A stretch of DNA of 57,294 nt from a virus (taxonomy: Duplodnaviria; Caudoviricetes). The stretch is from the IMG/VR virus record IMGVR_UViG_3300047457_001216, positions 1 to 57,294 of that record. One strand, 5' to 3'. The notes beneath the pieces were generated by a model. It was not told where the DNA came from, searched no databases, and saw nothing but the letters and a program-made list of their open reading frames with translations. Made by a program: the position numbers and the translations under genes. Shown one piece after another: positions 6,297 to 24,306 of this stretch (positions within the stretch are counted from its first letter, which is position 1; every line of letters starts with the position of its first letter).

Positions 6297-7723
6297 CCTT
6301 ACAGATCAGCCAGAAGCAGTATGAGTTGCTGAGCAGTCCTGCGGACTGGGTGCTGTTCGGTGGCGCTGCGGGTGGGGGGAAATCGTATGCGTTGATGCTG
6401 GACATGCTCAGGCATTGTCAGGGGCCTCACGGGCAGTCGTTGTTCCGTGGGGCGATTTATCGCCAGACGTTCCCGCAGTTGAGTCAGAGTGGTGGTTTGA
6501 TTGACCAGACGAAGCTGATTTATGGTGGTCTGGGTGCGGTTTACAACCACACGGCGAACGAGCATCGGTTCCCGGTGGGCGCGAAGGTGAGTCTGAACAC
6601 TTTGGACCAGCCCAAGAAGCTGCAGGGGTATCTGGGCGCTCAGTTTGACTCATTGGCGATTGATGAGGCGAACCAGTTTGAGCAGAAAGCGGTGCTTTTT
6701 CTGTGGGCGAGGTGTCGAAGTCAGTGCGGGATACGGCCGACGCTGCGGATGACGTCGAATCCGGACCACGACAGTTGGTTGTTTCCGCTGGTATCGTGGT
6801 ATTTGGACGATGAGGGGTACCCGAGACGCGAGTTGAGCGGGAAAATCCGTCATTTTATGGTGAAAGAGGAGCGTTTTCAGTGGTTTGACGAGCCTCAGTA
6901 CGAGGTAAACCCGGAAACGGGGCTGGTGGAGCAGGTGACGAACACGTTTGCGTTCATCCCGGCAAAATTGAGTGACAATCAGGCGTTGCAGAGGAGCGAC
7001 CCGACGTATCGGAAGCGTCTGATGCAGTTGTCGGAGCAGGAGAGGGAGCGGTATTTGGAGGGATGCTGGCTGGCGAGCAGCCGGACGGGTCAGGAGTGGC
7101 CGAGGGAGTGCTTCCAGGACGTGACGGTGACGCGGGATCAGTGGCCTAAGGAGGAGCATGCGGGGGACAGTGTGCGGATGTTCGCGGTGGACCCGAGCAA
7201 GGGGAAGAATGAGAAGTCGGGAGACTATTCGGCGATTGTGTGTCTGACGCAGACGCGGGAGTTGAAGTACGTGGATGCGGATCTGGCGAGGCGGCCGCCG
7301 GGTCAGATTGTGGAGGATTTGTTCCGGTTTTGTGAGGATCCGTTGCATCGGGTGCGGAGTGGGGATCTGGTGGGGATCGAAGCGACGGCGTTTCAGGAGG
7401 TGATGCGGGATCTGGTGTACCAGTATGCTGCGGATCACGGTCAGATGGCGTTGAGTCAGTATTTGTTGAGCGGGAATCCGCTGATACCGGTGAAGGACAT
7501 GCTGAAGAAGGAGATGCGGATCCGGAGGCTCGACGGTCCGATCCGGCGGCGGGAGTTGCGGTTTTTGGACACGCCCGGGACGCTGTTGCTGTTGAGTCAG
7601 TTGCGAAATTTTGACGGGATACCGGCGAGGGGTAAGCACGACGACGGTCCGGATGCGTTGGATCAGTGTCAGCAGTTGCCGTTGGCGCTGCAGCGGTACT
7701 GGGAAGAGATGCGGAAACAGTGA
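6293..7723 (+). CDS. terL: terminase large subunit
   Basis: Walker A GGAAGGGKS, Walker B LAIDEA, TSNP coupling motif, nuclease motifs AVDPS, GDYSA, HDDGPDA. Confidence 0.96.
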   Translation: MTLQISQKQYELLSSPADWVLFGGAAGGGKSYALMLDMLRHCQGPHGQSLFRGAIYRQTFPQLSQSGGLIDQTKLIYGGLGAVYNHTANEHRFPVGAKVSLNTLDQPKKLQGYLGAQFDSLAIDEANQFEQKAVLFLWARCRSQCGIRPTLRMTSNPDHDSWLFPLVSWYLDDEGYPRRELSGKIRHFMVKEERFQWFDEPQYEVNPETGLVEQVTNTFAFIPAKLSDNQALQRSDPTYRKRLMQLSEQERERYLEGCWLASSRTGQEWPRECFQDVTVTRDQWPKEEHAGDSVRMFAVDPSKGKNEKSGDYSAIVCLTQTRELKYVDADLARRPPGQIVEDLFRFCEDPLHRVRSGDLVGIEATAFQEVMRDLVYQYAADHGQMALSQYLLSGNPLIPVKDMLKKEMRIRRLDGPIRRRELRFLDTPGTLLLLSQLRNFDGIPARGKHDDGPDALDQCQQLPLALQRYWEEMRKQ

Positions 7724-7746: not shown

Positions 7747-8013
7747 ATGCCAAGGGGCGGTTGTGCGGGCTGTGGGATACCGAGCCCTGTCGAGGATGCG
7801 TTGACGGTGCTGACGTGGGTGTGTGCGGCGGGGTGGTCGCTGGTGCCTCAGGCGGGGCAGGTGAGTCCTGTGGCTCCGGGGAGCATGACAAGCCGGGCGC
7901 GTCGGGTTGTGCCATTTGCTGCGTCTCGTGATATGCTGCGTGGCTGGGAGACCGGACACGAGAGCATGGGGAGCCTGACAGATGGGTCGTCGCAGGGGTC
8001 GGAGAGAGCCTGA
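7747..8013 (+). CDS. possible small hypothetical protein between terL and portal (frame uncertain)
   Basis: GAGGGAG upstream, N-terminal CxxC; an alternative Cys/Gly-rich frame 7740-7931 also exists. Confidence 0.3.
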   Translation: MPRGGCAGCGIPSPVEDALTVLTWVCAAGWSLVPQAGQVSPVAPGSMTSRARRVVPFAASRDMLRGWETGHESMGSLTDGSSQGSERA

Positions 8014-9679
8014 GGAGCAGGGTGGCGGGTACGTGGACGCCAGCGAGGGGGCGCGTGGCGCTCGCAGGCAGCGTCCTGAGATTTCGCTGATGGGTGCGTT
8101 GGAGCTGCTGGAGCATCAGAAGGCGATGTTCGCGCGTCAGATTCTGGAGGAGTTGGGGACGGGGTGCGGGCTGTCGGGGGATACGGACGACCGGGACATC
8201 CCGGGGAGCGAGGACCCGTTCGAGAACGCGACGATCGACGACATCCGGGACCTGCTGGACCGTGGGGAGCAGGCGGCCGCGACTCCGTGGGGCAAGAATG
8301 CGTGGCGGAACCGGGCGTGTTATATCGCGGGGCCTCAGGGGCACCGGTATGTCGTGAAGCCTGCATCGGAGACGGGATCGTCGGCTGGTGAGTCTGTGGT
8401 GCGGGTGCAGGAGTATTTGAAGCAGTGGATGGCCAGTTCGGCTTCGGGGTACTGGTCGAGCCGGCAGCAGGAAGTTTGCCGGCGGTTGGACGAGCACGGT
8501 GAGTGTCTGGACCTGCTGTATTACGAGCCGGGGAAGCCGTTGCGGCTGAGTTTTGTGGAGCCGAGCGACCTGGACGAGGATCCGAGGAGTCGGTATCAGC
8601 CGGACACGGGTGACGAGCCGTTCGTGGATATTCTGGGGATCCGGCGGACGAACGACGTGCTGTACCGGCCGGTGGCGTACTACGTGTCGACGGTGAGCGA
8701 CTCGGTGAGTGGCCAGTGGCTGGGTGATCTGGAGTACCACAAGGCGGAGAAACTGGAGCCGGCGGATTTCACGGCGTTCAGTCCGGCGACTCGGTGTGTG
8801 GTGCAGTACCGTCGCAGGAACGTGGTGAGCGTTAAGCCGAGGGGTCTGTCGCTGTTCTGGGACGTGCGTGAGGAGCTGCGGTGGGCGAAGGTGCTGCTGG
8901 GCAACCTGATGCGGGTGAGTGCGTTTCAGGCGGCGTTTGGAGCGATCCGGACGATCAACACATCGGCAGGGGCCGATGCGGTGAAGGCGCATTTGCAGAG
9001 CCAGAACAGTGGGGCGGCGGGTCAGCCTGCGGAGCGGATGGAGTTTCCGAGCCCGAGCGTGGTGACGGTGCCATCGAGCGTGAAGTACGAGTTCCCGGAG
9101 ACGGGGGCTGGTGTAACGAACCACGCGGAGGTGGAGTTGCTGTTGCTGCGTGCGGTGGCTGCGGGGCTGCAGTTGCCGGAGTTCATGTTGACCGCGAACG
9201 TCAGCGAGGGGAATTTCGCGAGTACGCTGGTGAGCGAGGGCCCGTTTCACAAGGTGATTGTGGCGGATCAGGGTCAGATGGTGATCGAGGACCTTCGTCT
9301 GGTGTGGGAGGCGTTGGTTTGGGGTGCGTTGGAGGATCCGGAGAGCGGGATTACGGTGGCGGACCTGCAGGCGGTGACGATCGAGGCGAAGCCTCCGAGC
9401 GTGCAGACTCGGAACCGGAAGGAGGACTGGGATATCCACTTTGAGGCGTGGAAGGCCGGCCGGATCAGTGCGAAGACGCTGAATGCGAGTCAGGGGTGGG
9501 AGTACGACGAGGAGCAGGAGCAGCGTCGTGCGGAGGATGGTGAGTTGGAGCCTCCGATGACGGAGCATCCGCAGACACCGGGCGTGACGGGCCCTGATGC
9601 GCAGCGGCAATCAGATCCGTTGAAGGAGCGGGGTGTGATGGCTGGCGACCCGGGGCGACAGGTTCCGGGACAGTCTTGA
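7982..9679 (+). CDS. portal protein
   Basis: 565 aa directly after terL; HGE-x-L, RGLS, A-x-GL-x-LPEFML-x-A...NFAS portal-like motifs. Confidence 0.88.
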   Translation: MGRRRGRREPEEQGGGYVDASEGARGARRQRPEISLMGALELLEHQKAMFARQILEELGTGCGLSGDTDDRDIPGSEDPFENATIDDIRDLLDRGEQAAATPWGKNAWRNRACYIAGPQGHRYVVKPASETGSSAGESVVRVQEYLKQWMASSASGYWSSRQQEVCRRLDEHGECLDLLYYEPGKPLRLSFVEPSDLDEDPRSRYQPDTGDEPFVDILGIRRTNDVLYRPVAYYVSTVSDSVSGQWLGDLEYHKAEKLEPADFTAFSPATRCVVQYRRRNVVSVKPRGLSLFWDVREELRWAKVLLGNLMRVSAFQAAFGAIRTINTSAGADAVKAHLQSQNSGAAGQPAERMEFPSPSVVTVPSSVKYEFPETGAGVTNHAEVELLLLRAVAAGLQLPEFMLTANVSEGNFASTLVSEGPFHKVIVADQGQMVIEDLRLVWEALVWGALEDPESGITVADLQAVTIEAKPPSVQTRNRKEDWDIHFEAWKAGRISAKTLNASQGWEYDEEQEQRRAEDGELEPPMTEHPQTPGVTGPDAQRQSDPLKERGVMAGDPGRQVPGQS

Positions 9680-10889: not shown

Positions 10890-11417
10890 ATGCCTCAGTG
10901 TTTGGATTGCATGTACCAGCAGGGGAACTTCGGCAACGGCGTGATCGACACGGAGTCGATGGCTGCCCCGTCGCCTGCTGTTGATATTTGCGAGGGTGAT
11001 TTTCTGGTGGCTGACACCAGCGCGACGGGCGTGACGGAAGCGAAGTTGCTGTCTGCATTCACGTGGACAACTGACCTTGCGACCACGCGAACGAATGCGA
11101 AGGCGGCGTTCCGTGGCGTGAGTGCTCAGGAGTACGGGACGGAAGAGTGCATCACGCAGGAAGATTGCCTGCCGTTCTGGCGGTACAACAAAGGCAACGG
11201 CTTCCGTCGGTCGTATCTGATTGCGGGTGCCACTGGTGCTTTGGAGCCGACGACGTTCCAGCAGGGCCAGTTGTTCACGTTCGCGAAGAACCCGAGCAGC
11301 AATGCTCTGGTGAACAGCAAGATCGTGAAGACCAGTGATACTTCTGTTGCGGTGTTCCGTGCGGTAAGTGACAGCGGTCCGGACAACGTGAGCCGGGCGA
11401 CCGTCGAGTTTTACTGA
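10890..11417 (+). CDS. head decoration/cement protein
   Basis: Between protease and MCP; I-x-EGDFL and FRGVS motifs; GGAGA RBS. Confidence 0.7.
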   Translation: MPQCLDCMYQQGNFGNGVIDTESMAAPSPAVDICEGDFLVADTSATGVTEAKLLSAFTWTTDLATTRTNAKAAFRGVSAQEYGTEECITQEDCLPFWRYNKGNGFRRSYLIAGATGALEPTTFQQGQLFTFAKNPSSNALVNSKIVKTSDTSVAVFRAVSDSGPDNVSRATVEFY

Positions 11418-11461
11418 GTTTCTGGTTTGGTCTCTGATTGGATTGTTTTGGGAGAGTGAAG

Positions 11462-12691
11462 ATGTCGAAAAAAGGGCCGAACCGCGCGGTGACTCAGCAG
11501 ATTCTGCGAGACCACAAGAAGCACGGTGATGCGGTGTTCGAGGAGCTGGATGACATTCTGGAGGCTGGCGAGATCCAGGCGACGGAACTGGACCTCGTGT
11601 CGTGCCTTGAGCACGACTTCGGTGTGGGTTACCGTCGCGACGTGATGACGATGGGTGACGACGCGATGGAAGCGATCATCACCAGTGGTACCTTCAACAA
11701 AATGGTGCCGAAGATCATCCGGACGGCGTTGGCGGAGCAGCCGAAGGAACAGTATTTCCTGCTGAACCGAGTGACGATCGAGACCCGTGGCGAGTGCGAG
11801 GACGGGTACGAGGATCACGGAGTGTTCTCGGATCCCCAGGCTGACGAGATCTGCGAGCTGCAGAAGCCTCCGATGTTCGGCGTTGCGACCGACTTCATGA
11901 CGCACCCGAAGGGCAAGCAGTACGGCTTGGGATTTGCGTTCACTCGTGAGGCGGTGTGCCGCGATCCGAACAACTTCATCCAGCAGCAGATCCCGAAGAT
12001 CGGTGATGCTCACAACGAGAAGTTCGAGAACCAGTTGCTCGACCTTTTTGTTGGCTACACCAACACGTACAACCGCAGCGGGACGGATTACGACACCTAC
12101 TATGCTGCCGATGGCACGTCGACTCCGTTCGGCGACGGCAGTGGCGGCCCGTGGGTGAATGCTCAGGCGAACGACCTGACCTGTCCTGCGGATTTTCAGT
12201 CAGCGCGTAACCTGTTCTACGACTTCCGCGACATGGTTCACGGTCGTCCGATCCCTGTTCCGATGACTGGCCTAAGCGTGGTGACGAGCCCGCAGAAAGC
12301 CGATGCTGTGCGTCCGAAGTTGCTGGCGACTGCGATTGAGGACGACGTGACGTGCAACGGTGGCGACACGGTGAAATATATCATGACGGCCCAGGTTGCG
12401 AACCAGATGATGTTCGATCTGCTGTCCTATCAGCGACTGGTCGACCGGATTGCACTGCGGTGGGGCGTGACGGCCGAGGAGGCCCGGAACTGGTGGTGGT
12501 TGGGGAACATCCCCGAGTTCATGTCGTGGGTGTACAACATCCGGCCGACAGTGACTCGGTGCCCGCAGGATGCGGAGTCGTGTCAGCGACGGATTGTGGC
12601 TCAGTACACCAGCCTGTCGAAGGGATACGGGTACATTCGCAACCCGTATCGCGGGATGTGGTTCACACCGGTGGAAGAGAGCGGTAGCTGA
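11462..12691 (+). CDS. major capsid protein
   Basis: 409 aa; position; K-x-YG...FTREAV-x-RD segment typical of HK97-fold MCPs; followed by terminator. Confidence 0.88.
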   Translation: MSKKGPNRAVTQQILRDHKKHGDAVFEELDDILEAGEIQATELDLVSCLEHDFGVGYRRDVMTMGDDAMEAIITSGTFNKMVPKIIRTALAEQPKEQYFLLNRVTIETRGECEDGYEDHGVFSDPQADEICELQKPPMFGVATDFMTHPKGKQYGLGFAFTREAVCRDPNNFIQQQIPKIGDAHNEKFENQLLDLFVGYTNTYNRSGTDYDTYYAADGTSTPFGDGSGGPWVNAQANDLTCPADFQSARNLFYDFRDMVHGRPIPVPMTGLSVVTSPQKADAVRPKLLATAIEDDVTCNGGDTVKYIMTAQVANQMMFDLLSYQRLVDRIALRWGVTAEEARNWWWLGNIPEFMSWVYNIRPTVTRCPQDAESCQRRIVAQYTSLSKGYGYIRNPYRGMWFTPVEESGS

Positions 12692-12724
12692 GATTTGCGA
12701 GAGATCGCAGATTGAGAGAGAATG

Positions 12725-12760
12725 AAACCGTCCGGATTGACCCGGACGGTTTTATTTTTT
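12725..12760 (+). terminator. rho-independent terminator after MCP
   Basis: AAACCGTCCGG...CCGGACGGTTT followed by T-rich tract. Confidence 0.85.
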
Positions 12761-12779
12761 GTGGCTGCTGGAGGATAAT

Positions 12780-13061
12780 ATGGCAGGCAAGAGTTCGATT
12801 TGGGCGATTCGGATGCCGGGTGGTCCAACAAAGATCGTGATGAGTGATGTGGCGATTACTGAGGCGAAGGCGAAGACCGAATACCGTGCGTCGTTGCCGA
12901 AGACGGTGGCATCGACGTCTGACCGGGACAAGAGTGTTGAGTGGCCGCTGGTCGAGGCGATCGACGAGCAGACACTGACGAACAAGTACAGCAATTTTCT
13001 GCATCCGCATTCTTCGACTGGTAGGTCGCAGTTTGTGGTGGATCTGCGTAAGCCGAAGTGA
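12780..13061 (+). CDS. hypothetical protein
   Basis: GGAGG RBS; position after MCP. Confidence 0.75.
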   Translation: MAGKSSIWAIRMPGGPTKIVMSDVAITEAKAKTEYRASLPKTVASTSDRDKSVEWPLVEAIDEQTLTNKYSNFLHPHSSTGRSQFVVDLRKPK

Positions 13062-13068
13062 GGTTGCC

Positions 13069-13383
13069 ATGTCCTGTCTGAGTTGTGCTGAGCTGGAATC
13101 GAAGATCTGTGAGCTGGCAGAGAGTCTCACGAGCGGCGAGGCCTGCGGTGGCATCACCAGTCAGGGCGGCGTGACCGTCGACACCCGTGAGCAGATTATC
13201 CAGAAGCAGCGAGTTCTGGAGACATACCGGCAGATGTGGACGGACAAGCGGTGTGGCGAGCAGAACGATGCGGGGCTGTATGAGTTCATTCATACGGCCT
13301 GTGTCACTCCAGCGACCTGCACAGGGCGGTCCTGTCGTGGTTCGAGGGCCAGTCAGCGGTCGACGCGGAGATACCGGCGATGA
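13069..13383 (+). CDS. putative head-tail adaptor (Cys-rich)
   Basis: Helix-beta hairpin-helix pattern (ITSQGGVTVD) like gpW-type joining proteins; synteny. Confidence 0.55.
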   Translation: MSCLSCAELESKICELAESLTSGEACGGITSQGGVTVDTREQIIQKQRVLETYRQMWTDKRCGEQNDAGLYEFIHTACVTPATCTGRSCRGSRASQRSTRRYRR

Positions 13384-14027
13384 GTGAGGGGTGCTGTCCG
13401 GAGGTGCCGTGCGGTTGCCAGCAGTGGCTGGAGTCGTTCTGCGACTTCGAGACTGTCACGCACACGTACTGCGGCACTGAGACGACGTTCGAGAAGTGCA
13501 AGAGTTACCCGATGCAGACGGAACTGGTGCGTCCGGATGCGGGGATACACCAGCAGGACCGGATGTTTTTCGTGAGCCGGCAGGAGCAGGACGTTGGGAG
13601 TGCTCCGGGGGCTGTGATCGAGACGGCGGACGGGGAGCACTGGCAGGTGTACGCTGCGGAGTACCTGCAGGCGTTCTGTGTGTGGAAGTTGTGGGGGCGG
13701 AACGTGGCGACGTGCTTCAGCCTGACGAACCGTCTGGACATCTGGGATGCGACTGGGTGTGAGTCTGACTGTCAGTCGGTAAAGATGCAGAGGGTTGGGA
13801 CTGTGCGAGGCAAGATCCTGCCTGTTGCTGGTCAGCGGTCTGGGACGCGGAATTCTGACGACATGCGGGTGCGGTGGCAGTGTTCGGTGGAGCGGTGGAC
13901 AGTTGGTCCGTATCCGCTGGCGCATCACAGGATATCGAGCAGTCAGGGGATATTCCGGGTGGTGAGCTTCCAGGACGGCGGCCCGTATGTGCCGTTCACG
14001 ATGGTTCTGGAGCTGATGGATGTTTAG
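13380..14027 (+). CDS. putative head closure/stopper protein (Cys-rich)
   Basis: Synteny; two beta-rich repeats; ATGA overlap. Confidence 0.55.
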   Translation: MSEGCCPEVPCGCQQWLESFCDFETVTHTYCGTETTFEKCKSYPMQTELVRPDAGIHQQDRMFFVSRQEQDVGSAPGAVIETADGEHWQVYAAEYLQAFCVWKLWGRNVATCFSLTNRLDIWDATGCESDCQSVKMQRVGTVRGKILPVAGQRSGTRNSDDMRVRWQCSVERWTVGPYPLAHHRISSSQGIFRVVSFQDGGPYVPFTMVLELMDV

Positions 14028-14637
14028 CCTGCGGCTGGCTGATGCTGATGCGGATTACGAGGCTCCGTTCAGGGAGGCGGCTGGGGATGTCTGCTCCAGC
14101 CTTGCGTTTTCGCTTGCGCAAAAGTATCGCGAGTATTTGCTGAAACCGGACGCTCCTCCGCATAGCACTCCGTTTACGATCCCGCATGCTTACAACGGCT
14201 GGAAACCCGGGGGATTTTATTGGGCAGGAGATGCTGACAGTTTGTCTGATGGCGGCGACCTGAGCGATGAGGCGTGGTTGTTTGGCGATGTGTCTGGCGT
14301 GGCTCCTCGACAGCCACCGCCGATGCTGGAAAGCCACAGGAACAATACTGTTGCCGGCGGCAACATCATGGGCGTGCCGTTTGCCGAGGATCAAACCGTC
14401 AGTTTGGCGAATTACATTGAGTCAGAGTATTCTGGTGACTGGGAGAAGGGCTATTATGTGGGGATGTCTCCGAGTCACGTCTCTGGGCGTGACAACAACT
14501 ATCTGGTTCTGTTGGATCAGGGGTTGATTCCTGGGATTGCTCCGCGACCGTGGATTGAAGTGATTTTTGATTTTGAGCGTCGCGAATTGCTGGCGGCTGC
14601 ATTGCAGCCACAGGATGCTTCGCCTTTTGGAGGCTGA
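14020..14637 (+). CDS. putative neck/tail completion protein (HK97 gp10-like)
   Basis: PHS-x-P...PH and Y...LDQG...IAPRPWI motifs; synteny. Confidence 0.6.
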   Translation: MFSLRLADADADYEAPFREAAGDVCSSLAFSLAQKYREYLLKPDAPPHSTPFTIPHAYNGWKPGGFYWAGDADSLSDGGDLSDEAWLFGDVSGVAPRQPPPMLESHRNNTVAGGNIMGVPFAEDQTVSLANYIESEYSGDWEKGYYVGMSPSHVSGRDNNYLVLLDQGLIPGIAPRPWIEVIFDFERRELLAAALQPQDASPFGG

Positions 14638-14642
14638 CAGGA

Positions 14643-14780
14643 ATGCACCGGTACAAAATCTATGGCGTTGGCAGTGTGATGGAGTTCGACGCGGTGAGCC
14701 CGGAGGTGGCTGAGGCGATGCTGATCGAAGAGATCCCGCAGTTGCGTGTCGAGCAGATGGTGACCCGGAGGGTCCGATGA
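14643..14780 (+). CDS. hypothetical 45-aa protein (absent from ORF track)
   Basis: Hand-translated MHRYKIYGVGSVMEFDAVSPEVAEAML...; fills gap; ATGA overlap. Confidence 0.6.
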   Translation: MHRYKIYGVGSVMEFDAVSPEVAEAMLIEEIPQLRVEQMVTRRVR

Positions 14781-15196
14781 CCTGTTGCGTCGAGGATGCG
14801 TGGGTTGATGCGTTGCGGGCTCTGGACTGCACTCCGGTGAAGTCTGAGGGCCATTTCGTGCTGCAGCGGTCGGGCTCCGAGATCGTGCCGTATGTGGTGG
14901 TCAGCAGTGCGATTTCGAGTGGCCTGCGGACGACGGACACGGTGCAGCGGATCCAGAGTGTGAGCCTGCGCGGGTATTTCAGCGTCGACCGGATTCAGGA
15001 TGCCAGGGAGTGGCAGGGGCTGGTTGAGGCGTTGCTGACGTGCAAGCGGTGCGTGCCTCTTGGAGACTGTGGCTGTTTTTGTGTACGATCCGTCGGTCCA
15101 TCGCAGATGACCCCGGTGGGGACGCTGCTGAGCGTGTTTGTGACTGTCACAGGGAGTTTTATGCCGACCGAGGAGACGTCCGGGTCTGGCACATGA
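14777..15196 (+). CDS. putative tail terminator
   Basis: 139 aa, PYVVV motif, immediately before tail tube gene. Confidence 0.65.
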   Translation: MTCCVEDAWVDALRALDCTPVKSEGHFVLQRSGSEIVPYVVVSSAISSGLRTTDTVQRIQSVSLRGYFSVDRIQDAREWQGLVEALLTCKRCVPLGDCGCFCVRSVGPSQMTPVGTLLSVFVTVTGSFMPTEETSGSGT

Positions 15197-15208
15197 GGAG
15201 ATATTGAG

Positions 15209-15736
15209 ATGCCGTTTTCTGCTGGTGAGTTGTGCTGCTCGAATACTGCGTGCGTGTTGCTGGACACTGCCAGCGGGACTGGTGCGGTATGGGATCGTAT
15301 CCCGCATGTGACACAGATTGCGTTTACTGAATCCGCAAACACCCCGAAGCTGACGACCAGTTCGACTGGCGGCCGTGAGACGAGTGCCTGTGGTGTTGTC
15401 AGTGCAAGTGGTAACCTTGCGATTGCCTGCCACGGGGGGACAGCTCCAGGGTATTTGGCCGTGAACGCGATCTATCATCTGCGATGGTCTGCTGACTGTG
15501 ACAATATCTGGACGTCTGGCAACTGCCCGACTTCTGGCTCTGTTGTCGCATCTCCAACTTCTGGCACGTACTTTGAGGCCTACGTTCGCATCACGTCTGT
15601 GCCTGTTGACTACAACATTTCTGGCAATGCTGCGATCACCGTCAACTATGCGTTCGACATCGTTGCGTGGGTCGAAGGTGTCAGCGACAATGCTCAGGTC
15701 TCTGAAGCGTCTGTTGCGACCGGCTTCTTCTGCTGA
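15209..15736 (+). CDS. major tail (tube) protein
   Basis: GAGGAG RBS; beta-rich; T-x-SS-x-GG...SGNL...ITSV-x-VDY pattern; precedes chaperone and tape measure. Confidence 0.75.
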   Translation: MPFSAGELCCSNTACVLLDTASGTGAVWDRIPHVTQIAFTESANTPKLTTSSTGGRETSACGVVSASGNLAIACHGGTAPGYLAVNAIYHLRWSADCDNIWTSGNCPTSGSVVASPTSGTYFEAYVRITSVPVDYNISGNAAITVNYAFDIVAWVEGVSDNAQVSEASVATGFFC

Positions 15737-15751
15737 TAGTGGAGGTGTGGC

Positions 15752-16258
15752 ATGCAGAGAGTTCGAGTGGGCGACCTCGAACTTTCCATCAGTCCTCGCA
15801 GGTTGATCAACTACATCGAAAAGGTGCAGTTTATCAAGAGTCGGCGACCGGCTCCGTGGGATCTGATGAAAGGGGTTCCGAAGACTCTTTCGGTGGCGGA
15901 CTACACGGCATACGTGGAGACGGCGATGAAAACCGTCTACACGCATGCCAGTGCCGTCGGCATTCAGGAAGAGATGGATTTCGACACATCTGCGGAGGGG
16001 TTTTACTGGTCCTTGTGGAAGTGCATGGTTCCGGACCGGCCTTCGGTTCGTGCCAGAGTGTCGATGGCTGACGCTGGTTCTTCGCAGGAGCCGTGGGAAG
16101 CTGGCGTCCTGAGAGCGAAGGCGTTGTGGGAGGCAGCGAATGACGACGAGAAGCGTCAGATTCGCATGGCGATGGATGCCTCTGACCAGATGCGGCAAGT
16201 AAAAAACTCCGATGGCCCGCCCGAGACGAGCAGTCCGGAGCCGGGCCTAAAGGAGTGA
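15752..16258 (+). CDS. tail assembly chaperone (gpG-like)
   Basis: Between tail tube and tape measure; slippery A AAA AAC at 16201-16207. Confidence 0.8.
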   Translation: MQRVRVGDLELSISPRRLINYIEKVQFIKSRRPAPWDLMKGVPKTLSVADYTAYVETAMKTVYTHASAVGIQEEMDFDTSAEGFYWSLWKCMVPDRPSVRARVSMADAGSSQEPWEAGVLRAKALWEAANDDEKRQIRMAMDASDQMRQVKNSDGPPETSSPEPGLKE

Positions 16259-16422
16259 AGATGGAGATCCTGCCTGCGGACCCGGGTTTTCTGGTTCCTC
16301 GGTGCAGGTATCAACATTTGGCGGAGGCTCTGTGTCGTGAGCTGCACATTTCGCTAGACTCTGCGCTGCAGTACACCCCCTTTGAGGCGTATCAGGCACT
16401 GGGAGCAGAGATCTATGTCTGA
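16201..16422 (+). CDS. -1 frameshift extension of tail chaperone (gpGT-like)
   Basis: -1 frame open from slippery site to TGA 16420-16422 (...LAEALCRELHISLDSALQYTPFEAYQALGAEIYV). Confidence 0.75.
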   Translation, partial: KKLRWPARDEQSGAGPKGVKMEILPADPGFLVPRCRYQHLAEALCRELHISLDSALQYTPFEAYQALGAEIYV

Positions 16423-19400
16423 AGGTCAGCGGTTACTCGACGTTTTCGTGAGCGTGCGCCCGGACCCAGAGATGCTGGAGGCTGTGAAGGCTGCGCATGA
16501 GGCCCTCCTGTCGGATCTGCAGAAAAGACTGGCCGAGTTCAATACCGCCATCGGCGCAGACACCAGCAATGCGATCAACAAGGTCGCTACGGCTGTTGGT
16601 AAGCTGGCGGCAAGCATGGAAAAAGTCGCCGAGACAAAAGCTGGCAATGCAATTGCTGATGCAAACGCACAAGCAGAGAAGTATTCGGAGACTGCTGACA
16701 GGTTGCGTGAGAATCTTGCGGACGCGGCGAAATCGCAGGCTGCGCTGAACACAGCAACGAGCAAGGCGAACGCTGCTGGCGGTGCCATTGGATCTGGGTT
16801 GTCATCTTCTGGCTCAGCAGCCCCACCTCCGCAGCCGCCTGCGCCGAAAACGCAAGCAGAACTTGAGGTTGAGCGGATCAGTGAGAGAAGGGCAGGGGTT
16901 CAGGAGAATATCAAACTGCTGCGTGAAGCCAACTCGCTGGAAATCGCAAGACTTCGTGCTCTTGGCCAAAAGGAATTCGCCTCTCCGTATGAACAACAGA
17001 ATCGCGAGTTAAGAGCCATTGTGTTGCTAATGAAAGCGATGGATGCAGAAGAAGTCGACCTGTTGAGCAACGATGTGAGACGGCAGGAGTATTTGAATTT
17101 CTACAGCGAAGTCGGCCGTCGTGTAGACAATGCGAGAGAATCTGTCGAACGATTTGCGAACAGAGCGAGACAGGTTCCCGGGAGTGCTGTTTCGCAGCCT
17201 GATGCGTTGATTCGTTCGAAAATTCAGGAGGATATCGCGAAGCTATTCAGGGCTCAGAATATCAGGGCTGGAATAGCACTTGGTGCCCCACAGGAACGGG
17301 TGACAGGACTTCCTTCATCTGGCGCACTGGCCGATGATTTGCGAGCGCAGGAACAGGTTGTCAGAGAGAATGCTGCGAACGTCAAGAAGCTGCGGTCTGA
17401 ATACGATGGCACAAAAAATTCTGTTGATCGCTTGAGAGACGCAATTGACGTCCTTGTCGATAGTCAGAAACGTCTGAATGTTCTGCAACTGGCCGCCAAA
17501 GATCAGGGGAATCTCTATCGTGGAGTCGCTGAGCGAGCGAGAGATGCCTCGATAGCGGCGGGACGTTTGTCCATCTCGTTGAAAGAAATTGGTGACATTG
17601 GGCTGCGTGATGACATCGTGCAGTTGCGGCGTGACTTCCAGGACTTCGAGCGAGAACTGACACGCCTGCAGAGCAAGGGTGAATTCAATTTCGTTGTGCA
17701 GTCGTCTGGGCTGACAGAACTGCTGAACAGGCTTGAAACTCTGACGGCACGGTCTGGAACAGCGACTACAAGCAAAGAGAAGATTGTATCTGAGAACGAA
17801 AACTTACGGGCGTCAATTCGTCAGGACGAAATTAAAGCGCAAGCACTGAACGAAAAGTACATCAGCAGAACAACGGCGATAGAACGAACTGGAATCGTGA
17901 ACCAGAGAGAGGAGCTTGCAAAGAATCAGGCAAAGATTCAAGAGGTGAATAAGCAGCGAGACAACTCGATTCAAAAAGAAGAAGAGTTGAACAGACTGTT
18001 GAGAGAACGACAGGCTTTACTTGGTGGATTGAACAAAAGCCTTCAGAGTTTAGCTGATCGAACAAACGCATCTTTTAACAGATTGCAGAACACGGCATTT
18101 CAGGCCGGACAGGCCTTCGAAGACTTTGCCGTTGGCTTCCAGTTGAACGGATTTGCCGGCGGGATTCGTGGCGCGGCGAACAACATTTCTTTCATCGCAC
18201 AGGACCTCGCCAGCGTATATGTCGATAGTGAAAAAATCAGTCAGAAATGGAAACTGATTGCTGGTTTGGGTACCGGTATTGGTGCGGCGCTGGCTGTAAC
18301 CATTTTGCCGCTCGTTATCGAATGGCTGGAAAACCTCAACGACATTGAGGTCGAACTGGCTGACATCAGCAAACGCATGAAGGATGTCGCACGCGAGTCC
18401 GAGTTGGTTGCGGAATTCAATCAAAACACAAGAGAGACGATTGATCAGATAGCAGAGTCTGATTCATTGGAGTCTGTGCTGGACACGATGAGAGATCTCA
18501 GGCTGGAGTCTGAGAAGCTATCAAACAGCGTGGTTGACACACTGAGGTCACTTTCAGACCAGCGGGCCCTTGAGGATTTCAGGAAAGGCTTCAGTGATGT
18601 ACTTGACGGAGTGAGGCAGCAGATTGCTCGCCTTATGAATCCTCAAGACATAGACATATTGCCTGATGCTCTTCCTCTCGGATTTCTGGATGATGCGTTT
18701 TTCGCTGCTCAAAGAGCTTTGCGTGAGAAACAGATCGCTGAGGAGTTAGCCAATTCAAATGAACTCATTGATAATTATCTGGAGCTGAATCGTCAGATAG
18801 ATGCAGCATTTGCTGGAGCCCGCCGTGGCGTGTTCGATTCTGCTCAGCTCAAAGATATTGAGGACAGATTCGGCGAACTTGCGGATCAGGTGGATGCGTT
18901 TGCAAAGAGCGCCGACGTGGCGAATCAGGAGTTTGCGAAAACTGCACGTGAAAATATCGCACCGCTGCAGAAACTCTTTGAAGGGCTCAGGGAGAGTGCC
19001 AGAGAGTACGAAAACCTCATCACTCAGCGTTTGATTGCTGCGACAGAGGCTGCGATACAAAAGTCTGAGCAGCTCGAAAGACGTCAGAAGCTGATCCGGA
19101 GGGAAATCAACGGAGAGATCGACGCTGGGGCCCAGCAGGCGATCGAGATCGACGAGATGTCACAGCAGTATCAGGACATGATCGACGCAACGCTGGAGTT
19201 TTACAAGCGAAGTGGTGCTGTGCGTGCGGATCAGATTGATCAGCTTCGGGCAGCACTTCAGCAGCAGGCGAATCTGGAACTCGGCAATGCGGCTTTGAAA
19301 GAAGAGAAGGATCTGGTTGACAAGATTCGTGCGGCCGAAGAAAAACTGGATGGTATCAGGAACAAACGCGGTAGCCGGCAGAGTCAGGTTGTGCGTCCTG

Positions 19401-19855
19401 AAGAGTTCCTGCAGCAGATTCAGACGGCCGTGCTGAGTATTGAGCCAGTTGACAAAAACACCGATGCGCTGGAAAAGGCAACGAAGGAGATTGCTGATCT
19501 GAATTTCCAGCTTCAGCGGATGAACAGGTTACAGGCTGTGGCTGCTGAGGAGGCGGTAATACGTGAACGTGCGGCAGGCGGCCCGTTGTTGCCGAGAGAT
19601 GCTCAGCGATTCCGTGAACTGCAGGACATTCGAAGGCAGGTGCCTTTGATTGCTCGTCCGGCGGAGGACATTCCGGGACCGTTCAACCCGTTGCGAGAAT
19701 TGCCAATTCGCGCTGCGTTGCGAGATGAAGTACGATTGGGAGTTCAGGACGCTATTCAGCAGGGACTGCGAGATCTCGCACCGAACCTGTTCAAGAGCAT
19801 TGATGGCGTTGGCGAAGCTGTCAGGAAGAAAGATTTGGGAGCGAGAGCACAATGA
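16415..19855 (+). CDS. tape measure protein
   Basis: 1146-aa helical Ala/Gln/Glu-rich protein with central hydrophobic segment; synteny. Confidence 0.9.
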   Translation: MSEGQRLLDVFVSVRPDPEMLEAVKAAHEALLSDLQKRLAEFNTAIGADTSNAINKVATAVGKLAASMEKVAETKAGNAIADANAQAEKYSETADRLRENLADAAKSQAALNTATSKANAAGGAIGSGLSSSGSAAPPPQPPAPKTQAELEVERISERRAGVQENIKLLREANSLEIARLRALGQKEFASPYEQQNRELRAIVLLMKAMDAEEVDLLSNDVRRQEYLNFYSEVGRRVDNARESVERFANRARQVPGSAVSQPDALIRSKIQEDIAKLFRAQNIRAGIALGAPQERVTGLPSSGALADDLRAQEQVVRENAANVKKLRSEYDGTKNSVDRLRDAIDVLVDSQKRLNVLQLAAKDQGNLYRGVAERARDASIAAGRLSISLKEIGDIGLRDDIVQLRRDFQDFERELTRLQSKGEFNFVVQSSGLTELLNRLETLTARSGTATTSKEKIVSENENLRASIRQDEIKAQALNEKYISRTTAIERTGIVNQREELAKNQAKIQEVNKQRDNSIQKEEELNRLLRERQALLGGLNKSLQSLADRTNASFNRLQNTAFQAGQAFEDFAVGFQLNGFAGGIRGAANNISFIAQDLASVYVDSEKISQKWKLIAGLGTGIGAALAVTILPLVIEWLENLNDIEVELADISKRMKDVARESELVAEFNQNTRETIDQIAESDSLESVLDTMRDLRLESEKLSNSVVDTLRSLSDQRALEDFRKGFSDVLDGVRQQIARLMNPQDIDILPDALPLGFLDDAFFAAQRALREKQIAEELANSNELIDNYLELNRQIDAAFAGARRGVFDSAQLKDIEDRFGELADQVDAFAKSADVANQEFAKTARENIAPLQKLFEGLRESAREYENLITQRLIAATEAAIQKSEQLERRQKLIRREINGEIDAGAQQAIEIDEMSQQYQDMIDATLEFYKRSGAVRADQIDQLRAALQQQANLELGNAALKEEKDLVDKIRAAEEKLDGIRNKRGSRQSQVVRPEEFLQQIQTAVLSIEPVDKNTDALEKATKEIADLNFQLQRMNRLQAVAAEEAVIRERAAGGPLLPRDAQRFRELQDIRRQVPLIARPAEDIPGPFNPLRELPIRAALRDEVRLGVQDAIQQGLRDLAPNLFKSIDGVGEAVRKKDLGARAQ

Positions 19856-21033
19856 CGAGGATGACCGAAAATCTCCCATTCTGTGTCACTGCAATCCATC
19901 CATCAGGATTGATTCAATGTCAGAACGGTCGAGTGACTGCTACTCGGCAGTTTCTGGTTCCTGCGGTTCGCGCTGAAGAATTTGGTTTGCGGATGCTGGG
20001 AAAGTGGCGTGGCCGAGGCGGTGTCGTGTCGTATCAAACACCGCAATTGCCAGCCTACTTCCCATACAGTTACGCCTCTGGAATCCCGAAAGCCTTTCAG
20101 GAAAAGAAGGCGTGGCCATTCCGAATGATCGCGACTGGATTCACACTGGATCCTATCGACAACTGTTGTTTCAACTCAGCATCGCAGGAAGACACCGGGC
20201 CGGTCACGGCATTCATTACGGATGCCCAGAGCATTGCGCAGGCTGAGAGATATTATCCAGTCGACGGCGACAATGACGCGATCATGGAGTCGCAATGCAA
20301 GATGCAAGTGACTGTTCAGTATCAGGAGTGTCCGTGGGACTGCACTGGTTTTGACGGAGATCCTGAAACCACAAACATCATAGAGATCATGGATTATACG
20401 GCAATTGCCGTTGAGAGAACGTCCTCATACATTCTTCAAACACTGCCAAACAGAAATCTTGTTTGGGCTGATTTGCCGGGTCCTGAGAATCAGTTAAAGG
20501 GCGATACGTATGCTACGGTTCTGATTCCCACAGCAGACATCACGATTGACTGGTTCAATGTCCCGCTGAGTCAACTTTGCCAGATTGAAACGCATCTGAA
20601 CAAATTCAGAAATCGAGTGAATTGCACTCCGTTTACTTTGTTGAGTGACTGCATGTGTCTCTCCTCAGTGGACGATGTTTGTGAAGAATCAGGATCAGAA
20701 GTGTCGGAGTGTCTCTACGAAGAGGAAACGGTACTTTTCATAGACTGGGAGGAACTGAAGGAGCAGCGAACTCGCGGTTTCAGGTTGATGGACACAACGA
20801 CATTGAGGCTGATGTTTAAGCAGAGAAGGATCAACACGGCAAAACCATATTTTCCAAAGAACATTGTTGGCTGGAATCATCTGTATTGTGATTCGACTGA
20901 TCCCGGCGATGACGGTGGCTGGCGCAGAGTTGCGAGAAGCGAACCTGACGGATTGCGTCCACTGTACGAAGGACTCAACCTGAACAATATGTTTGATCTG
21001 TTATCTATTGTTACTGAAGGATGTCCCAACTGA
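19852..21033 (+). CDS. putative distal tail/hub protein (Cys-rich)
   Basis: Directly after tape measure, ATGA overlap. Confidence 0.6.
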   Translation: MTRMTENLPFCVTAIHPSGLIQCQNGRVTATRQFLVPAVRAEEFGLRMLGKWRGRGGVVSYQTPQLPAYFPYSYASGIPKAFQEKKAWPFRMIATGFTLDPIDNCCFNSASQEDTGPVTAFITDAQSIAQAERYYPVDGDNDAIMESQCKMQVTVQYQECPWDCTGFDGDPETTNIIEIMDYTAIAVERTSSYILQTLPNRNLVWADLPGPENQLKGDTYATVLIPTADITIDWFNVPLSQLCQIETHLNKFRNRVNCTPFTLLSDCMCLSSVDDVCEESGSEVSECLYEEETVLFIDWEELKEQRTRGFRLMDTTTLRLMFKQRRINTAKPYFPKNIVGWNHLYCDSTDPGDDGGWRRVARSEPDGLRPLYEGLNLNNMFDLLSIVTEGCPN

Positions 21034-22205
21034 TGTCCAGGATACCTCCGCAGTGGAAAGTCGGAGAACGCATTACCGCTGAGCATTTGAATGCAATGCG
21101 TCGTGAGTCGTTGCGCAGTCGGGCTTCTGTTGCCAATGGTCCTGACATCTCAGTCGTTGGTGACAATTTTGGCTCCCAGTCTGCTGGCATGCTGAAGCCT
21201 GCAATGCAACTGGTGATTGCCAGAGAGGACTTTGAGAAGTTCCAGAGAACGGACAATTATCCGGTATTCGATGAAACGCCCTCTGGCAAGTGCAGCCTGA
21301 TCAGGCTGGATATTGCGTCTGGCAAATACGTCGACGAGAACGAGAATCTGTTCAGAACCTTCCGAGTCTGGGATCCGCTGGCAGAACTGACTGGCGCACC
21401 GACGAAGAAGCAGGGCGACATCTTCTACATCGTCTGGAACAAGGACACGCAACGGGCTGAAGTGTTGCAGGCCAGTGGCGTACAGATCCGGCATGGGCTT
21501 GTTGGCGACTGCCTTGGGATGGGATGGTATACGGTCGAGTTGATGGACTGCATGCAGTTCGAGCCGCCGGACTGCGAGGATTTTGATCCGTATTCAGGTT
21601 CTGATCTTGGCTCTGGGTCGGACTCAGGCTCTGGTGGTGGTGGTGATGGGTGTGAGCTGTGTGAACCTACGGCCGAGGACGCCTGTGGGGATCCCAGCGG
21701 CATTCCTGACTTGGCTTTTGGTTGTGCTCAGGCAGAGGTTGTCACGACGATCCGTCCGAGGCGGAACAGCCGATGTTATCCGCTGTACGGGAATAATCAG
21801 TTCGTCTATGCACTGGACAAGCGTGTCGTGCCGCTGAAGAAAGACGGCATGGTCACCATTGCGTATCTTGGAGATACGTGCAGTGGCGGATCCGGATGGG
21901 AGACGGGCTGCGGTCCTGCGGGATCTGAGAGTGGCAGCAATCCGGAGACAGGAAAAGGTCTGTGGGTTGTCCTGAACGGCGAGTATGAGACGGTCTCGAT
22001 TCCCTATGAGCGGTACGAGTGCTGCGAGGATGGGACGGTCAAAAGGATTCAGTGTACGATGTTCATCGTTGAGGGATCTGTGTGCGTTGGTCCGGTGGAT
22101 CCATGCCCAACCGACTCTGGTTCAGGGAGCGATTCCGGCTCAGGCTCAGGATCCGGATCTGGCGGCGGCGGTGGCCCCGGGCTGGAAGGCGGAGAAACAC
22201 CGTAG
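21033..22205 (+). CDS. putative tail tip protein with Cys-rich domains and SGSG linkers
   Basis: N-terminal W-x-VGE-x-ITA-x-HLN motif; TGATG coupling. Confidence 0.65.
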   Translation: MSRIPPQWKVGERITAEHLNAMRRESLRSRASVANGPDISVVGDNFGSQSAGMLKPAMQLVIAREDFEKFQRTDNYPVFDETPSGKCSLIRLDIASGKYVDENENLFRTFRVWDPLAELTGAPTKKQGDIFYIVWNKDTQRAEVLQASGVQIRHGLVGDCLGMGWYTVELMDCMQFEPPDCEDFDPYSGSDLGSGSDSGSGGGGDGCELCEPTAEDACGDPSGIPDLAFGCAQAEVVTTIRPRRNSRCYPLYGNNQFVYALDKRVVPLKKDGMVTIAYLGDTCSGGSGWETGCGPAGSESGSNPETGKGLWVVLNGEYETVSIPYERYECCEDGTVKRIQCTMFIVEGSVCVGPVDPCPTDSGSGSDSGSGSGSGSGGGGGPGLEGGETP

Positions 22206-22867
22206 TGGGATTCACGGCAACAAACCCTGCGATTCTGGAATGCTGCGGCTGCGGCTGTGTGGGCTGCTGTGTCCCGCTGCGCTATGACAGTCCGCAGTAC
22301 CCGGGCGGGTATATCCCGGCAATCCCGTTTGAAATCATCGCTCCCGGTTGTCCTGAAATCGACGGGGCGACGGGGTCCTTTCCGCCGGTGGATCCGACTG
22401 CTCCGATCAAAGGCAGGTGCGGTGCCTGTGCGACGTTCTGTTCGACGGTGCAGGCGGTTCTGGCTGGGACGTTCCGCGTTGAGTTGGGCGGCATGTGCAT
22501 GACGAGTCCGTGCGGCTTCAAGTTCTGCCTGGCACTGGAATGCACCGCCTCTCAGGAGCCTGCCACGGATCCGTTGCTGGAACCCTGCTGCAGTCGTTTC
22601 CGGCTGTGGATCGGCACAGACGTGACTCAGGTGGAGGACAACGGGCAGCGGCCGGCAAGTCTGCTCGACTGTCAGTTGGCCTGCGTAAGCTGGAAGGCCG
22701 TTGCCCCGACCAGTTGCGTCTGCCTGCCGGACGGTGGGGGTTTCAGCGGACGGTTTCCTCTGGCGATCAATTACTACTGCCCGAGCTTCCCGAGCGGACC
22801 GTGCGAGGGCCAGCCGAACTGCTGCCTGCTGAACTGTGATTTGAGCGACGCCGAACTCGTGGTATGA
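22205..22867 (+). CDS. very Cys-rich putative tail protein
   Basis: GTG at 22205 overlaps upstream TAG; ~25 Cys in 220 aa (hand count). Confidence 0.7.
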   Translation: MGFTATNPAILECCGCGCVGCCVPLRYDSPQYPGGYIPAIPFEIIAPGCPEIDGATGSFPPVDPTAPIKGRCGACATFCSTVQAVLAGTFRVELGGMCMTSPCGFKFCLALECTASQEPATDPLLEPCCSRFRLWIGTDVTQVEDNGQRPASLLDCQLACVSWKAVAPTSCVCLPDGGGFSGRFPLAINYYCPSFPSGPCEGQPNCCLLNCDLSDAELVV

Positions 22868-22888
22868 TCGTACCGGAGGGCGACTGTT

Positions 22889-23119
22889 ATGGGCGAACAG
22901 TGTCAGTGTCCGCTGGCTGGATATTGTGAACGGCGGAAAACTCGCATACCCACGGCACACTGGCAGATGTGTCAGCGTGGGCTGGTGGCGCAGGTCGACA
23001 AACTGTGGGCACAGGCTCCGGTGCGTCGTGAGTCTGGCATGACGATCTCGGAAACAGCATCGCTACCACCGGAGAAGAAGTGCGGCTGTGGGACGCGACT
23101 GAAGGGTTTCGTGAGGTGA
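22889..23119 (+). CDS. small Cys-rich protein
   Basis: GGAGG RBS; CQCPLAGYC...CQ...CGC. Confidence 0.7.
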   Translation: MGEQCQCPLAGYCERRKTRIPTAHWQMCQRGLVAQVDKLWAQAPVRRESGMTISETASLPPEKKCGCGTRLKGFVR

Positions 23120-23286: not shown

Positions 23287-24306
23287 ATGGCTTTGCGTCC
23301 AAGAATACATCGCAGATCAAATCAGGATGCCCGAATGAGGACTCCTCTGCCAATGCTGGAGTTACCAAAAGATCGGTGGCTTCCTCCGTTGAAGTACGTG
23401 CAGATTGCCACGCATTCGCGATGCAACGCCGACTGTGTGTTTTGCCCGTACATCGAGTCGGTGCATCACAAACACCCCGGCATGATGACGGATGAGACGT
23501 GGATTTTGATACTCGACAATCTTGTACCGTTCGGTGCCGGTCTGAAAAAGATCTGTCCGTATCTGATGCAGGAGCCTTTGCTGGACAGAAGCATCTATGC
23601 GAAGATCGCTCAGATTTACGAGCGGTTTCCGCATGTGACGGTCGAGATCAGTACCAATGGTGCTGCACTGACTGAGCAGGCCGTTGAGAAACTGTTTGCT
23701 GTGATGGAAGGCCGATCTCACGACATCTGGGTGTCGCATCATGGGATCGACAAGGAGACCTTCGAACACATCATGCAGATTGATTATCAGCGTTCGACTG
23801 AGAATCTGATACGCATGCTGAAGATGTCGAACGGCCGGTACAACATCAAAATACGCGGTGCCGGGAAATCGAAGGCTGTCAATCGGACCTTCTTCACGAG
23901 AGAGCAGTACGTCGAGTATTGGGAGCGGACATTCACTGATCATGAGATCAACAGGGCAAATGTTTCTGTCGATGCGTTCGAGTTTCACGATCGAGCGGGA
24001 TCTTTGAAGCGTGAGGACCGTGGTGCGAATGAGTTGAATCAGGGGATTGTCCGGCAGATTGGGCCCGGCCATCGGCCGTTCTCCTGCACTCGCATCAATG
24101 AATGGATTCACTTCATGCACGATGGCAGGATTCGCATCTGCTGCATGGATTACCATCACGAGGTGCAGTTGCCGAGCATCCATGATATGTCGCTGCTGGA
24201 TTACTATCACAGTCAAGCGTACATCGGTCTGGTGAATTGTGTGAGTGGTCGCACAGAATCTCCAGCCGATTTTATCTGCAAGAGATGTACCAGTCCCGGG
24301 GGCTAG
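23287..24306 (+). CDS. radical SAM enzyme with SPASM/twitch domain
   Basis: CNADCVFC (CxxxCxxC), EPLLD, STNG, C-terminal C...DG-x-I-x-ICC-x-D...ICKRC. Confidence 0.93.
   Translation: MALRPRIHRRSNQDARMRTPLPMLELPKDRWLPPLKYVQIATHSRCNADCVFCPYIESVHHKHPGMMTDETWILILDNLVPFGAGLKKICPYLMQEPLLDRSIYAKIAQIYERFPHVTVEISTNGAALTEQAVEKLFAVMEGRSHDIWVSHHGIDKETFEHIMQIDYQRSTENLIRMLKMSNGRYNIKIRGAGKSKAVNRTFFTREQYVEYWERTFTDHEINRANVSVDAFEFHDRAGSLKREDRGANELNQGIVRQIGPGHRPFSCTRINEWIHFMHDGRIRICCMDYHHEVQLPSIHDMSLLDYYHSQAYIGLVNCVSGRTESPADFICKRCTSPGG

Follow-up and report, generated by a model that had tools for sequence, protein, structure and literature searches.

Conserved cysteine enrichment in proteins of the neck, tail tube and tail tip in an uncultured phage of the siphovirus type

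Cysteine-rich virion proteins

The DNA described here, called the window below, comprises positions 1 to 57,294 of IMG/VR virus record IMGVR_UViG_3300047457_001216 and represents all or nearly all of the genome of an uncultured phage of the siphovirus type. Eight proteins encoded between positions 13069 and 23119, among them the presumed neck, tail terminator, tail tube and tail-tip proteins (Table 1), are rich in cysteine (Cys). Sequence comparison with related viruses strongly supports selection for Cys in the outer and connecting proteins of the virion. On balance, it is probable that these residues staple the virion through disulfide bonds formed after its release.

The eight proteins together contain 98 Cys in 1709 residues (5.73%), compared with 205 in 11024 (1.86%) in the remaining open reading frame (ORF) calls (Fisher odds ratio 3.2, p 1e-17); the contig mean is 2.05%. 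Nine vicinal Cys-Cys (CC) pairs are found across the set in the translations. An earlier note on this DNA had given Cys counts made by hand and had pointed to the N-terminal motifs MPQCLDC, MSCLSC, MSEGCC, MTCC and ELCC; translation reproduced all of the counts, and every one of the motifs is present. The portal, the scaffold-like protein, the chaperone and the tape measure, taken together with three other proteins that are small or unnamed (100, 205 and 55 amino acids, aa), contain 11 Cys in 2556 residues (0.43%). The major capsid protein (MCP), at 2.0%, and the 175-aa protein of the capsid region, at 2.9%, are little above the contig mean and exceed the distant MCP homologues (0.45%) about four-fold.

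The Cys frequency was also compared with that of homologous structural proteins, and enrichment was found there as well. The adaptor, closure, terminator and tube proteins of the window have 4.6-7.7% Cys and represent the unusual part of the set, because their counterparts in lambda, HK97 and SPP1 contain only 0-4 Cys (0-1.9%). The lambda tip proteins L and K already have 3.0-3.5% Cys, so that tip-1 and tip-2 of the window (about 4%) are less remarkable than tip-3 (11.3%).

The tape measure, which the earlier note had treated as an internal control, indeed has no Cys. The pooled ORFs of its orthologues contain 4 Cys in 19274 residues, and those of five near-complete relatives contain 0-1 each. 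Its value as a control is smaller than that note supposed, since 0 Cys are found in each of the tape measures of lambda, HK97 and SPP1 (853, 1089 and 1032 aa, respectively) and a Cys-free tape measure is therefore ordinary, which weakens the reading given there. The real controls are the portal, the scaffold-like protein, the 205-aa protein, the tryptophan (Trp) frequency and the distant homologues.

Table 1. Features of the virion gene region and its surroundings, with the basis of each assignment
Feature	Length (aa)	Cys	Position	Strand	Basis or remark
Terminase large subunit			6293-7723	+	PF03237
Portal protein, lambda family			7982-9679	+	PF05136
Scaffold-like protein	324		upstream of the 175-aa protein and MCP genes	+	without family match
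175-aa protein	175	5	10890-11417	+	between scaffold and MCP genes
MCP	409	8	11462-12691	+	HK97 fold, Foldseek
Head-completion protein ('adaptor')	104	8	13069-13383	+	label by gene order
Head-completion protein ('closure')	215	12	13380-14027	+	label by gene order
Cys-poor protein	205	1	14020-14637	+	among Cys-rich neck genes
Tail terminator or tail-completion protein	139	8	14777-15196	+	Atlas lead
Tail tube protein	175	8	15209-15736	+	model and Foldseek
Presumed tail assembly chaperone	168	1	15752-16258	+	position before tape measure
Tape measure protein	1146	0	16415-19855	+	label by size and position
Tail-tip protein 1 (tip-1)	393	15	19852-21033	+	no family match
Tail-tip protein 2 (tip-2)	394	16	21021-22205	+	alignment of orthologues
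Tail-tip protein 3 (tip-3)	221	25 (11.3%)	22202-22867	+	frame verified
76-aa ORF	76	6	22889-23119	+	N-terminal 4-Cys motif recurs in relatives
Radical SAM / SPASM-like enzyme			23287-24306	+	PF04055, 8.7e-8

Conservation of cysteine among relatives

A profile built from 47 MCP sequences identified 58 related viral loci with MCP identities of 46-99%. Orthologues were collected by blastp of the window proteins against the ORFs of these loci; matches with a query coverage below 60% were dropped and identical sequences were collapsed. Among relatives at 31-67% identity, the invariant Cys residues number 8 of 8 in the adaptor, 9 of 12 in the closure protein, 6 of 8 in the terminator and 6 of 8 in the tube, while the conservation of the non-Cys residues in these proteins is 0.40-0.53. 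The idea that the residues might be unconserved, raised in the earlier note as a ground for rejecting its proposal, is thus not borne out.

Each of the eight Cys residues of the adaptor is kept in 27-28 of 28 distinct sequences, where the other residues are 0.47 conserved; the total is eight in 27 of the 28, and the exception is a truncated sequence. The invariant residues of the closure protein (33 sequences) include the N-terminal cluster C5, C6, C11, C13, C21 and C31, and 23 of the 33 sequences arrive at a total of 12 Cys through different variable positions. In the terminator, C3, C4, C92, C98, C100 and C102, the last of which belong to a CGCFC motif, are each present in 30 of 30 sequences. 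The tube has an invariant core of C9, C10, C15, C61, C74 and C97 (26 sequences), with C106 and C175 as a variable pair. The 175-aa protein of the capsid region keeps C4, C34 and C87 in 39 of 39 distinct orthologues, and in the MCP alignment (n=47) C241 and C298 are found in all 47 sequences and C112 and C166 in 46.

In tip-1, C164 and C267 are kept in 21 of 21 sequences, C243 in 20 and C149 in 19, and the remaining Cys residues vary. Tip-2 has an invariant C211-x2-C214 and a C-terminal block consisting of C334, C335, C345, C355 and C362. Tip-3 contains four vicinal CC pairs; orthologues with 18-25 Cys occur in six loci, and only three homologues were found in the databases.

The same division between proteins is seen when the divergent orthologues are pooled, with the near-identical loci L001-L003 left out and duplicates collapsed. 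The pooled Cys content is 7.85% for the adaptor, 5.36% for the closure protein, 6.24% for the terminator, 4.53% for the tube and 10.2% for tip-3, and it is 0.02% for the tape measure, 0.73% for the portal, 0.60% for the scaffold-like protein and 0.25% for the 205-aa protein. Five relatives of 51-63 kb are near-complete, four of them with an estimated completeness of at least 90%. Their Cys counts, in the same order of genomes, are 8, 8, 8, 8 and 8 for the adaptor; 12, 12, 12, 12 and 11 for the closure protein; 9, 9, 9, 9 and 10 for the terminator; and 8, 6, 6, 6 and 8 for the tube.

More distant homologues were available for the MCP. The profile matched 362 representatives in a library of 1.84 billion proteins, and the best 150 of the 362 were examined. 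At each of the Cys columns of the clade, Cys occurs in only 2-4 of the 160 aligned rows from this sample; the distant homologues have Phe at the position of C166, Asp at C241, Thr, Ser or Ala at C298, Ala at C367 and Phe at C374. The 132 full-length representatives (18 of the 150, shorter than 330 aa, were left out of the count) have a median of one Cys and a pooled content of 0.45%. Judged from these alignments, the Cys residues of the clade are a derived state, acquired in the lineage and then fixed. The selection on Cys suggested by these comparisons is strongly supported, because the Cys positions do not vary although other positions do, because distant homologues lack them and because all five near-complete relatives show the pattern.

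Strand composition and reading frames

It is important to consider whether the Cys richness could be a by-product of a G/T-rich coding strand or of wrongly chosen frames. The skew itself, which the earlier note had named as a possible sole cause, is real. The GC skew of the plus strand is +0.13 to +0.33 across positions 6001-32000, a range that includes the region, and random sequence with such a composition would be expected to give about 3-4% Cys. However, neighbouring genes on the same strand encode 0-0.9% Cys, and the Cys positions are invariant among the relatives. The Trp codon (TGG) would also become more frequent under a G/T skew, yet Trp is 1.9% in the Cys-rich set and 2.3% in the rest, so the strand skew is not the cause. 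A position-specific expectation from base composition was considered as a control and rejected as circular, because the T1 and G2 frequencies are in part made up by the Cys codons.

The coding frame of tip-3, the richest gene, was verified. In near-identical relatives its plus-strand frame has 99% amino acid identity, compared with 91% for the antisense ORF, and the differences from two orthologues are 0.41-0.44, 0.33-0.36 and 0.69-0.70 at the three codon positions. The plus-strand frame is the coding one. The explanation by composition or frame is refuted, and we leave it practically no probability.

Capsid, neck and tail-tube proteins

The MCP is predicted to have the HK97 fold. The model (pLDDT 76.8) gave HK97 gp5 (1ohg_A) as the best Foldseek match, with an E-value of 1.2e-9 and a probability of 1.0, among 337 matches at E <= 0.001. 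The family matches were weak (PF25209 at 25.2 bits, with a cut-off of 27, and phrog_1650), and the profile had no match among PDB sequences. The MCP has eight Cys counted from the ATG at 11462, and nine if an upstream TTG is used. The model is entirely helical over roughly its first 90 residues (H8-90, within residues 1-95, positions 11462-11750), and this N-terminus resembles, in the model, the HK97 delta domain or a scaffolding domain. The separate 324-aa scaffold-like protein encoded upstream carries a conserved C257-x-C259 (39 of 42 sequences). The 175-aa protein has no match in Pfam or PHROG; its gene position makes it a candidate capsid decoration or cement protein.

The tube assignment likewise comes from a model, of moderate confidence (pLDDT 70.2), in which residues 1-11, 104-110 and 164-175 are disordered with very low confidence. 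Foldseek aligned it with the tubes of monocin, SaPI1/80alpha, Sf11, a gene transfer agent (GTA), SPP1 and lambda gpV, with E-values from 2e-4. Eight matches were at E <= 0.001, each of them an entry for the tail, neck or baseplate of a phage or tailocin or for the whole particle, with a TM value of about 0.5; the SPP1 and lambda gpV tubes match at 3e-3 to 1.5e-2. No Pfam family was matched. By its predicted fold the protein is a siphophage-type tail tube. The disordered segments of the monomer model hold C9, C10, C106 and C175. In solved siphophage tubes, terminal arms become ordered on neighbouring subunits.

For the remaining proteins the assignments are less direct. PHROGs, Pfam and NCBIfam contained no match to the adaptor or closure protein, the terminator, the tube or any tip protein. 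Profile comparison of the adaptor with the HK97 and SPP1 adaptors by hhalign found no similarity, the closure profile resembled neither the HK97 or SPP1 closure proteins nor any PDB sequence, and the neck protein profiles in general had no match among PDB sequences, so that 'adaptor' and 'closure' are labels taken from gene order. The Atlas feature clusters nearest to the terminator carry PF12691 or PF11367 (score 0.94), which is a lead only, and the Atlas search gave no lead for tip-3.

Between the Cys-rich 215-aa and 139-aa proteins lies the gene of the Cys-poor 205-aa protein, which is kept in relatives (10 Cys in 4076 residues pooled from 26 orthologues) and has no match in Pfam. It may not be an exposed part of the virion. 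The chaperone orthologues have 1-2 Cys. A 55-aa ORF (16255-16422), overlapping both the chaperone gene at its end and the tape measure gene at its start, may represent the second portion of a frameshift product of the G/GT type. The tape measure had no family match.

Chemistry of the cysteine residues

The earlier note had proposed a shell stapled by disulfides, thioethers or metal. Its premise of selection for Cys stands, and of the three chemistries disulfides fit best, because Cys residues are gained and lost in pairs and because published precedents exist. In the tube, the core six residues are accompanied by C106 and C175 (8 sequences), by C84 and C160 (8) or by neither (10), and never by a single extra Cys. 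In the MCP alignment, columns 316 and 328 co-occur in 10 of 10 cases and columns 258 and 434 in 6 of 7; C374 is present in 28 of the 33 sequences having C367, and the sole sequence without C112 also lacks C166. Such pairwise behaviour of the variable residues points to disulfides, since a lone pair can make a disulfide and not a metal site.

The proposed mechanism is as follows. The bonds would form at or after lysis, when the assembled particle leaves the reducing cytoplasm, and would staple the tube rings, the neck and the tip together. Cys clusters on flexible arms at the N-terminus (CC-x4-C for the tube, CC for the terminator and the closure protein) and on the C-terminal tails would act as branching nodes to neighbouring subunits, comparable to those of the Milano collar described below. 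Cys would stay scarce in proteins that exit the particle or are at no time part of it, which is their ordinary state.

Several points weigh against the disulfide reading, to which we give a little better than even chances. That the residues bond at all, with which partners and at what time, is what we infer. The co-occurrence of Cys residues is confounded and inflated by shared ancestry. Odd counts occur, with 9 Cys in 17 of 30 terminators, 3-5 in the 175-aa protein and 4-12 in the MCP, so that not all Cys residues can pair within one protomer. Disulfides would not form if the habitat of the phage were permanently reducing, and no phage thiol oxidase of the thioredoxin, DsbA or Erv families was found among about 60 ORFs scanned with Pfam. 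Finally, some of the motifs would suit a metal: the adaptor and tip-2 have a CxxC, the terminator has a CxCxC, and the adaptor has a total of eight Cys, or twice four.

These motifs lead to the rival explanation that some or all of the Cys clusters bind metal, as structural Zn or Fe-S sites within or between subunits. The precedent is lambda gpL, with an Fe-S cluster on Cys173, Cys182, Cys205 and Cys212 (PMC10721106), and the lambda proteins L and K are, as mentioned, Cys-rich themselves. Tip-2 has the invariant spacing C335-x9-C345-x9-C355-x6-C362 in addition to C211-x2-C214, all eight Cys of the adaptor are invariant, and the terminator has C-x5-C-x-C-x-C. However, the tip-2 profile, the only one compared with lambda gpL, showed no similarity to it (hhalign probability 0.1). 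The nine vicinal CC pairs would be poor ligands for a single metal, the isolated variable pairs are too few for a metal site, and in the alignments inspected no His or Asp takes the place of a Cys. Metal binding is thus rather unlikely to be the general explanation; at some of the clusters it has a modest chance and could coexist with disulfides elsewhere. A further variant would make the N-terminal CC arms and the CxCxC and CC-x9-C-x9-C-x6-C blocks, instead of simple stabilising disulfides, a redox- or metal-gated lock, formed by inter-subunit thiolate-metal nodes or by neck and tip disulfides that have to undergo reduction or exchange at the host envelope for the tail to open. We regard this as improbable; if true, it would couple genome delivery to a step of thiol chemistry.

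Thioethers were the third chemistry of the earlier note, and this part of its proposal finds little support. Radical S-adenosylmethionine (SAM) superfamily enzymes make Cys-derived thioethers in peptides, and immediately behind the tip genes the window has a radical SAM gene, whose product carries a CxxxCxxC motif and ends in a SPASM-like C-terminus. Its product could in principle convert virion Cys into non-reducible thioethers of the sactionine or ranthionine type. PF04055 passes its cut-off, while PF13186 (21.2 bits) is just under 21.5, and all 23 NCBIfam matches, peptide-maturase models included, are far below their cut-offs. A homologue was found in one of the five near-complete relatives, whereas all five keep the Cys-rich proteins; in that relative the gene is accompanied by a family 2 glycosyltransferase (GT2), a methyltransferase-like ORF and another glycosyltransferase-looking ORF. 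Because of this distribution and its place in a sugar-modification cassette, thioether formation by the enzyme is highly improbable. The gene is probably an accessory cassette member for sugar modification and not part of any cross-linking. Disulfide stapling therefore remains the preferred reading, with metal as a lesser possibility at some clusters.

Genome context and origin

The order of genes on the plus strand is terminase, portal, scaffold-like protein, 175-aa protein, MCP, small head-completion and tail genes, tape measure and three tip genes. Replication genes (SNF2 helicase, primase-polymerase and UvrD helicase) are found further downstream of the tail-tip genes. Tip-2 contains low-complexity Ser/Gly/Asp linkers in the middle of the protein and at the C-terminus, between the conserved Cys blocks, which read SGSDSGSG... 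in the window and SASASA... in relatives.

The motif C-x-C-x5-C-x14-C of the 76-aa ORF also stands at the head of a 415-codon open frame of record G005, whose length is about 399 aa when counted from the aligned start. The remainder of that frame matches nothing in the window and has the look of an enzyme. Either a remnant or a small, portable Cys module may be present in the 76-aa ORF. It is followed by the segment 23287-27539, which contains the radical SAM/SPASM-like gene, a GT2 glycosyltransferase gene and three more genes without a name, for products of 254, 263 and 232 aa. All five near-complete relatives keep the first of these three (254 aa), and the radical SAM and GT2 genes were found in one only. 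The cassette may glycosylate the virion or the host surface. A 108-aa protein with six Cys, encoded at 49986-50312, matches the restriction alleviation protein Lar (PF14354, 4.3e-9). The window contains no tRNA genes.

A tblastn search with the MCP and portal against 50,697 phage records gave no match, and the best matches of the terminase among phage records are Methanoculleus viruses at only 36% identity. The phage collection thus contains no cultured relative and indicates no host. Among 185,579 species genomes, the MCP profile matched only one locus (L060, 55% identity), a 7.8-kb contig in a metagenome-assembled genome (MAG) labelled Candidatus Saccharibacteria. It is probably a phage contig that was binned with the MAG and is too weak a basis for naming the host. 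A literature search for this clade found nothing, which is not proof that nothing is in print.

Comparison with known systems

Virion-wide disulfide networks have already been published for the phages Milano and Jabs, and the idea itself is not new. Covalent disulfide stapling of whole particles has been described since 2023 in only a few cultured phages. Here the signature has become fixed in a clade that counts at least 58 contigs of uncultured viruses, at a Cys density far above the 2.4% of the Milano structural proteins. This suggests that the strategy arose independently and is more widespread than the cultured phages show. The small tube, terminator and neck proteins with their dense Cys could be expressed to test how networks arise when no oxidase is known, or could find use as robust protein nanotubes.

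The siphophage Jabs of Mycobacterium abscessus is reported to have about 1,700 disulfide bonds, and the preprint describes links from MCP to MCP, from the terminator to the first tube ring, from tube ring to tube ring and from Dit to the tube (bioRxiv 10.64898/2026.07.24.740622). No oxidase is known according to that text, and its authors suggest that the bonds may form during or after lysis (bioRxiv 10.64898/2026.07.24.740622). Like Jabs, the phage of the window would have a tail that is long and non-contractile, and the same classes of protein are Cys-rich. The tubes differ, in that four Cys are named in the 264-residue central domain of the Jabs tube, as far as described there, while the tubes of the present clade have 6-8 in 153-175 residues. 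No sequence relationship with Jabs was found, and its reported bonds are compared here with putative ones. The fold search with the MCP listed generic HK97-fold capsids and covered PDB entries to 8 April 2026, which predate the Jabs preprint.

The Agrobacterium myophage Milano is described as having 1.4% Cys in its proteome and 2.4% in its structural proteins, and dithiothreitol (DTT) weakens the particle (PMC10491603). In its collar, the vicinal Cys22 and Cys23 of gp13 each bond a different neighbour, and N-terminal Cys residues form links (PMC10491603). The window resembles Milano in its N-terminal and vicinal Cys residues (Cys19, 22 and 23 of Milano gp13 serve as nodes), in the conservation of Cys among relatives and in what would here be a particle-wide network. 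Phage 7-7-1 is reportedly a relative of Milano. Unlike that of the present phage, the tail of Milano is contractile and bears a special collar, and stabilisation there was shown by DTT and sonication.

A siphovirus tail tube, gp39, is reported to have inter-ring disulfides with two Cys per monomer and belongs to PF08813 (PMC13576161). In both cases the tube Cys residues were acquired in one branch of a family, which points to stapling of the tube; the tube of the window differs in having 6-8 Cys and no Pfam family. The tip proteins are similar to lambda gpL in being Cys-rich, in being encoded just after the tape measure and in having at least four conserved Cys near the C-terminus. They differ from it in size and gene order, and the tip-2 profile has no detectable sequence similarity to it. 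Cys-enriched capsid proteins of gut phages have also been surveyed, according to a 2026 preprint.

The features that distinguish the phage described here from these systems are the Cys density, the recurrent N-terminal CC arms and their fixation in an uncultured clade without a cultured relative. The neck, tube and tip proteins have 3.8-11.3% Cys in a contig with a mean of 2.05%, compared with 2.4% in the structural proteins of Milano. The density, up to 11% in the 221-aa tip protein and 7.7% in the 104-aa neck protein, exceeds that of the published cases compared.

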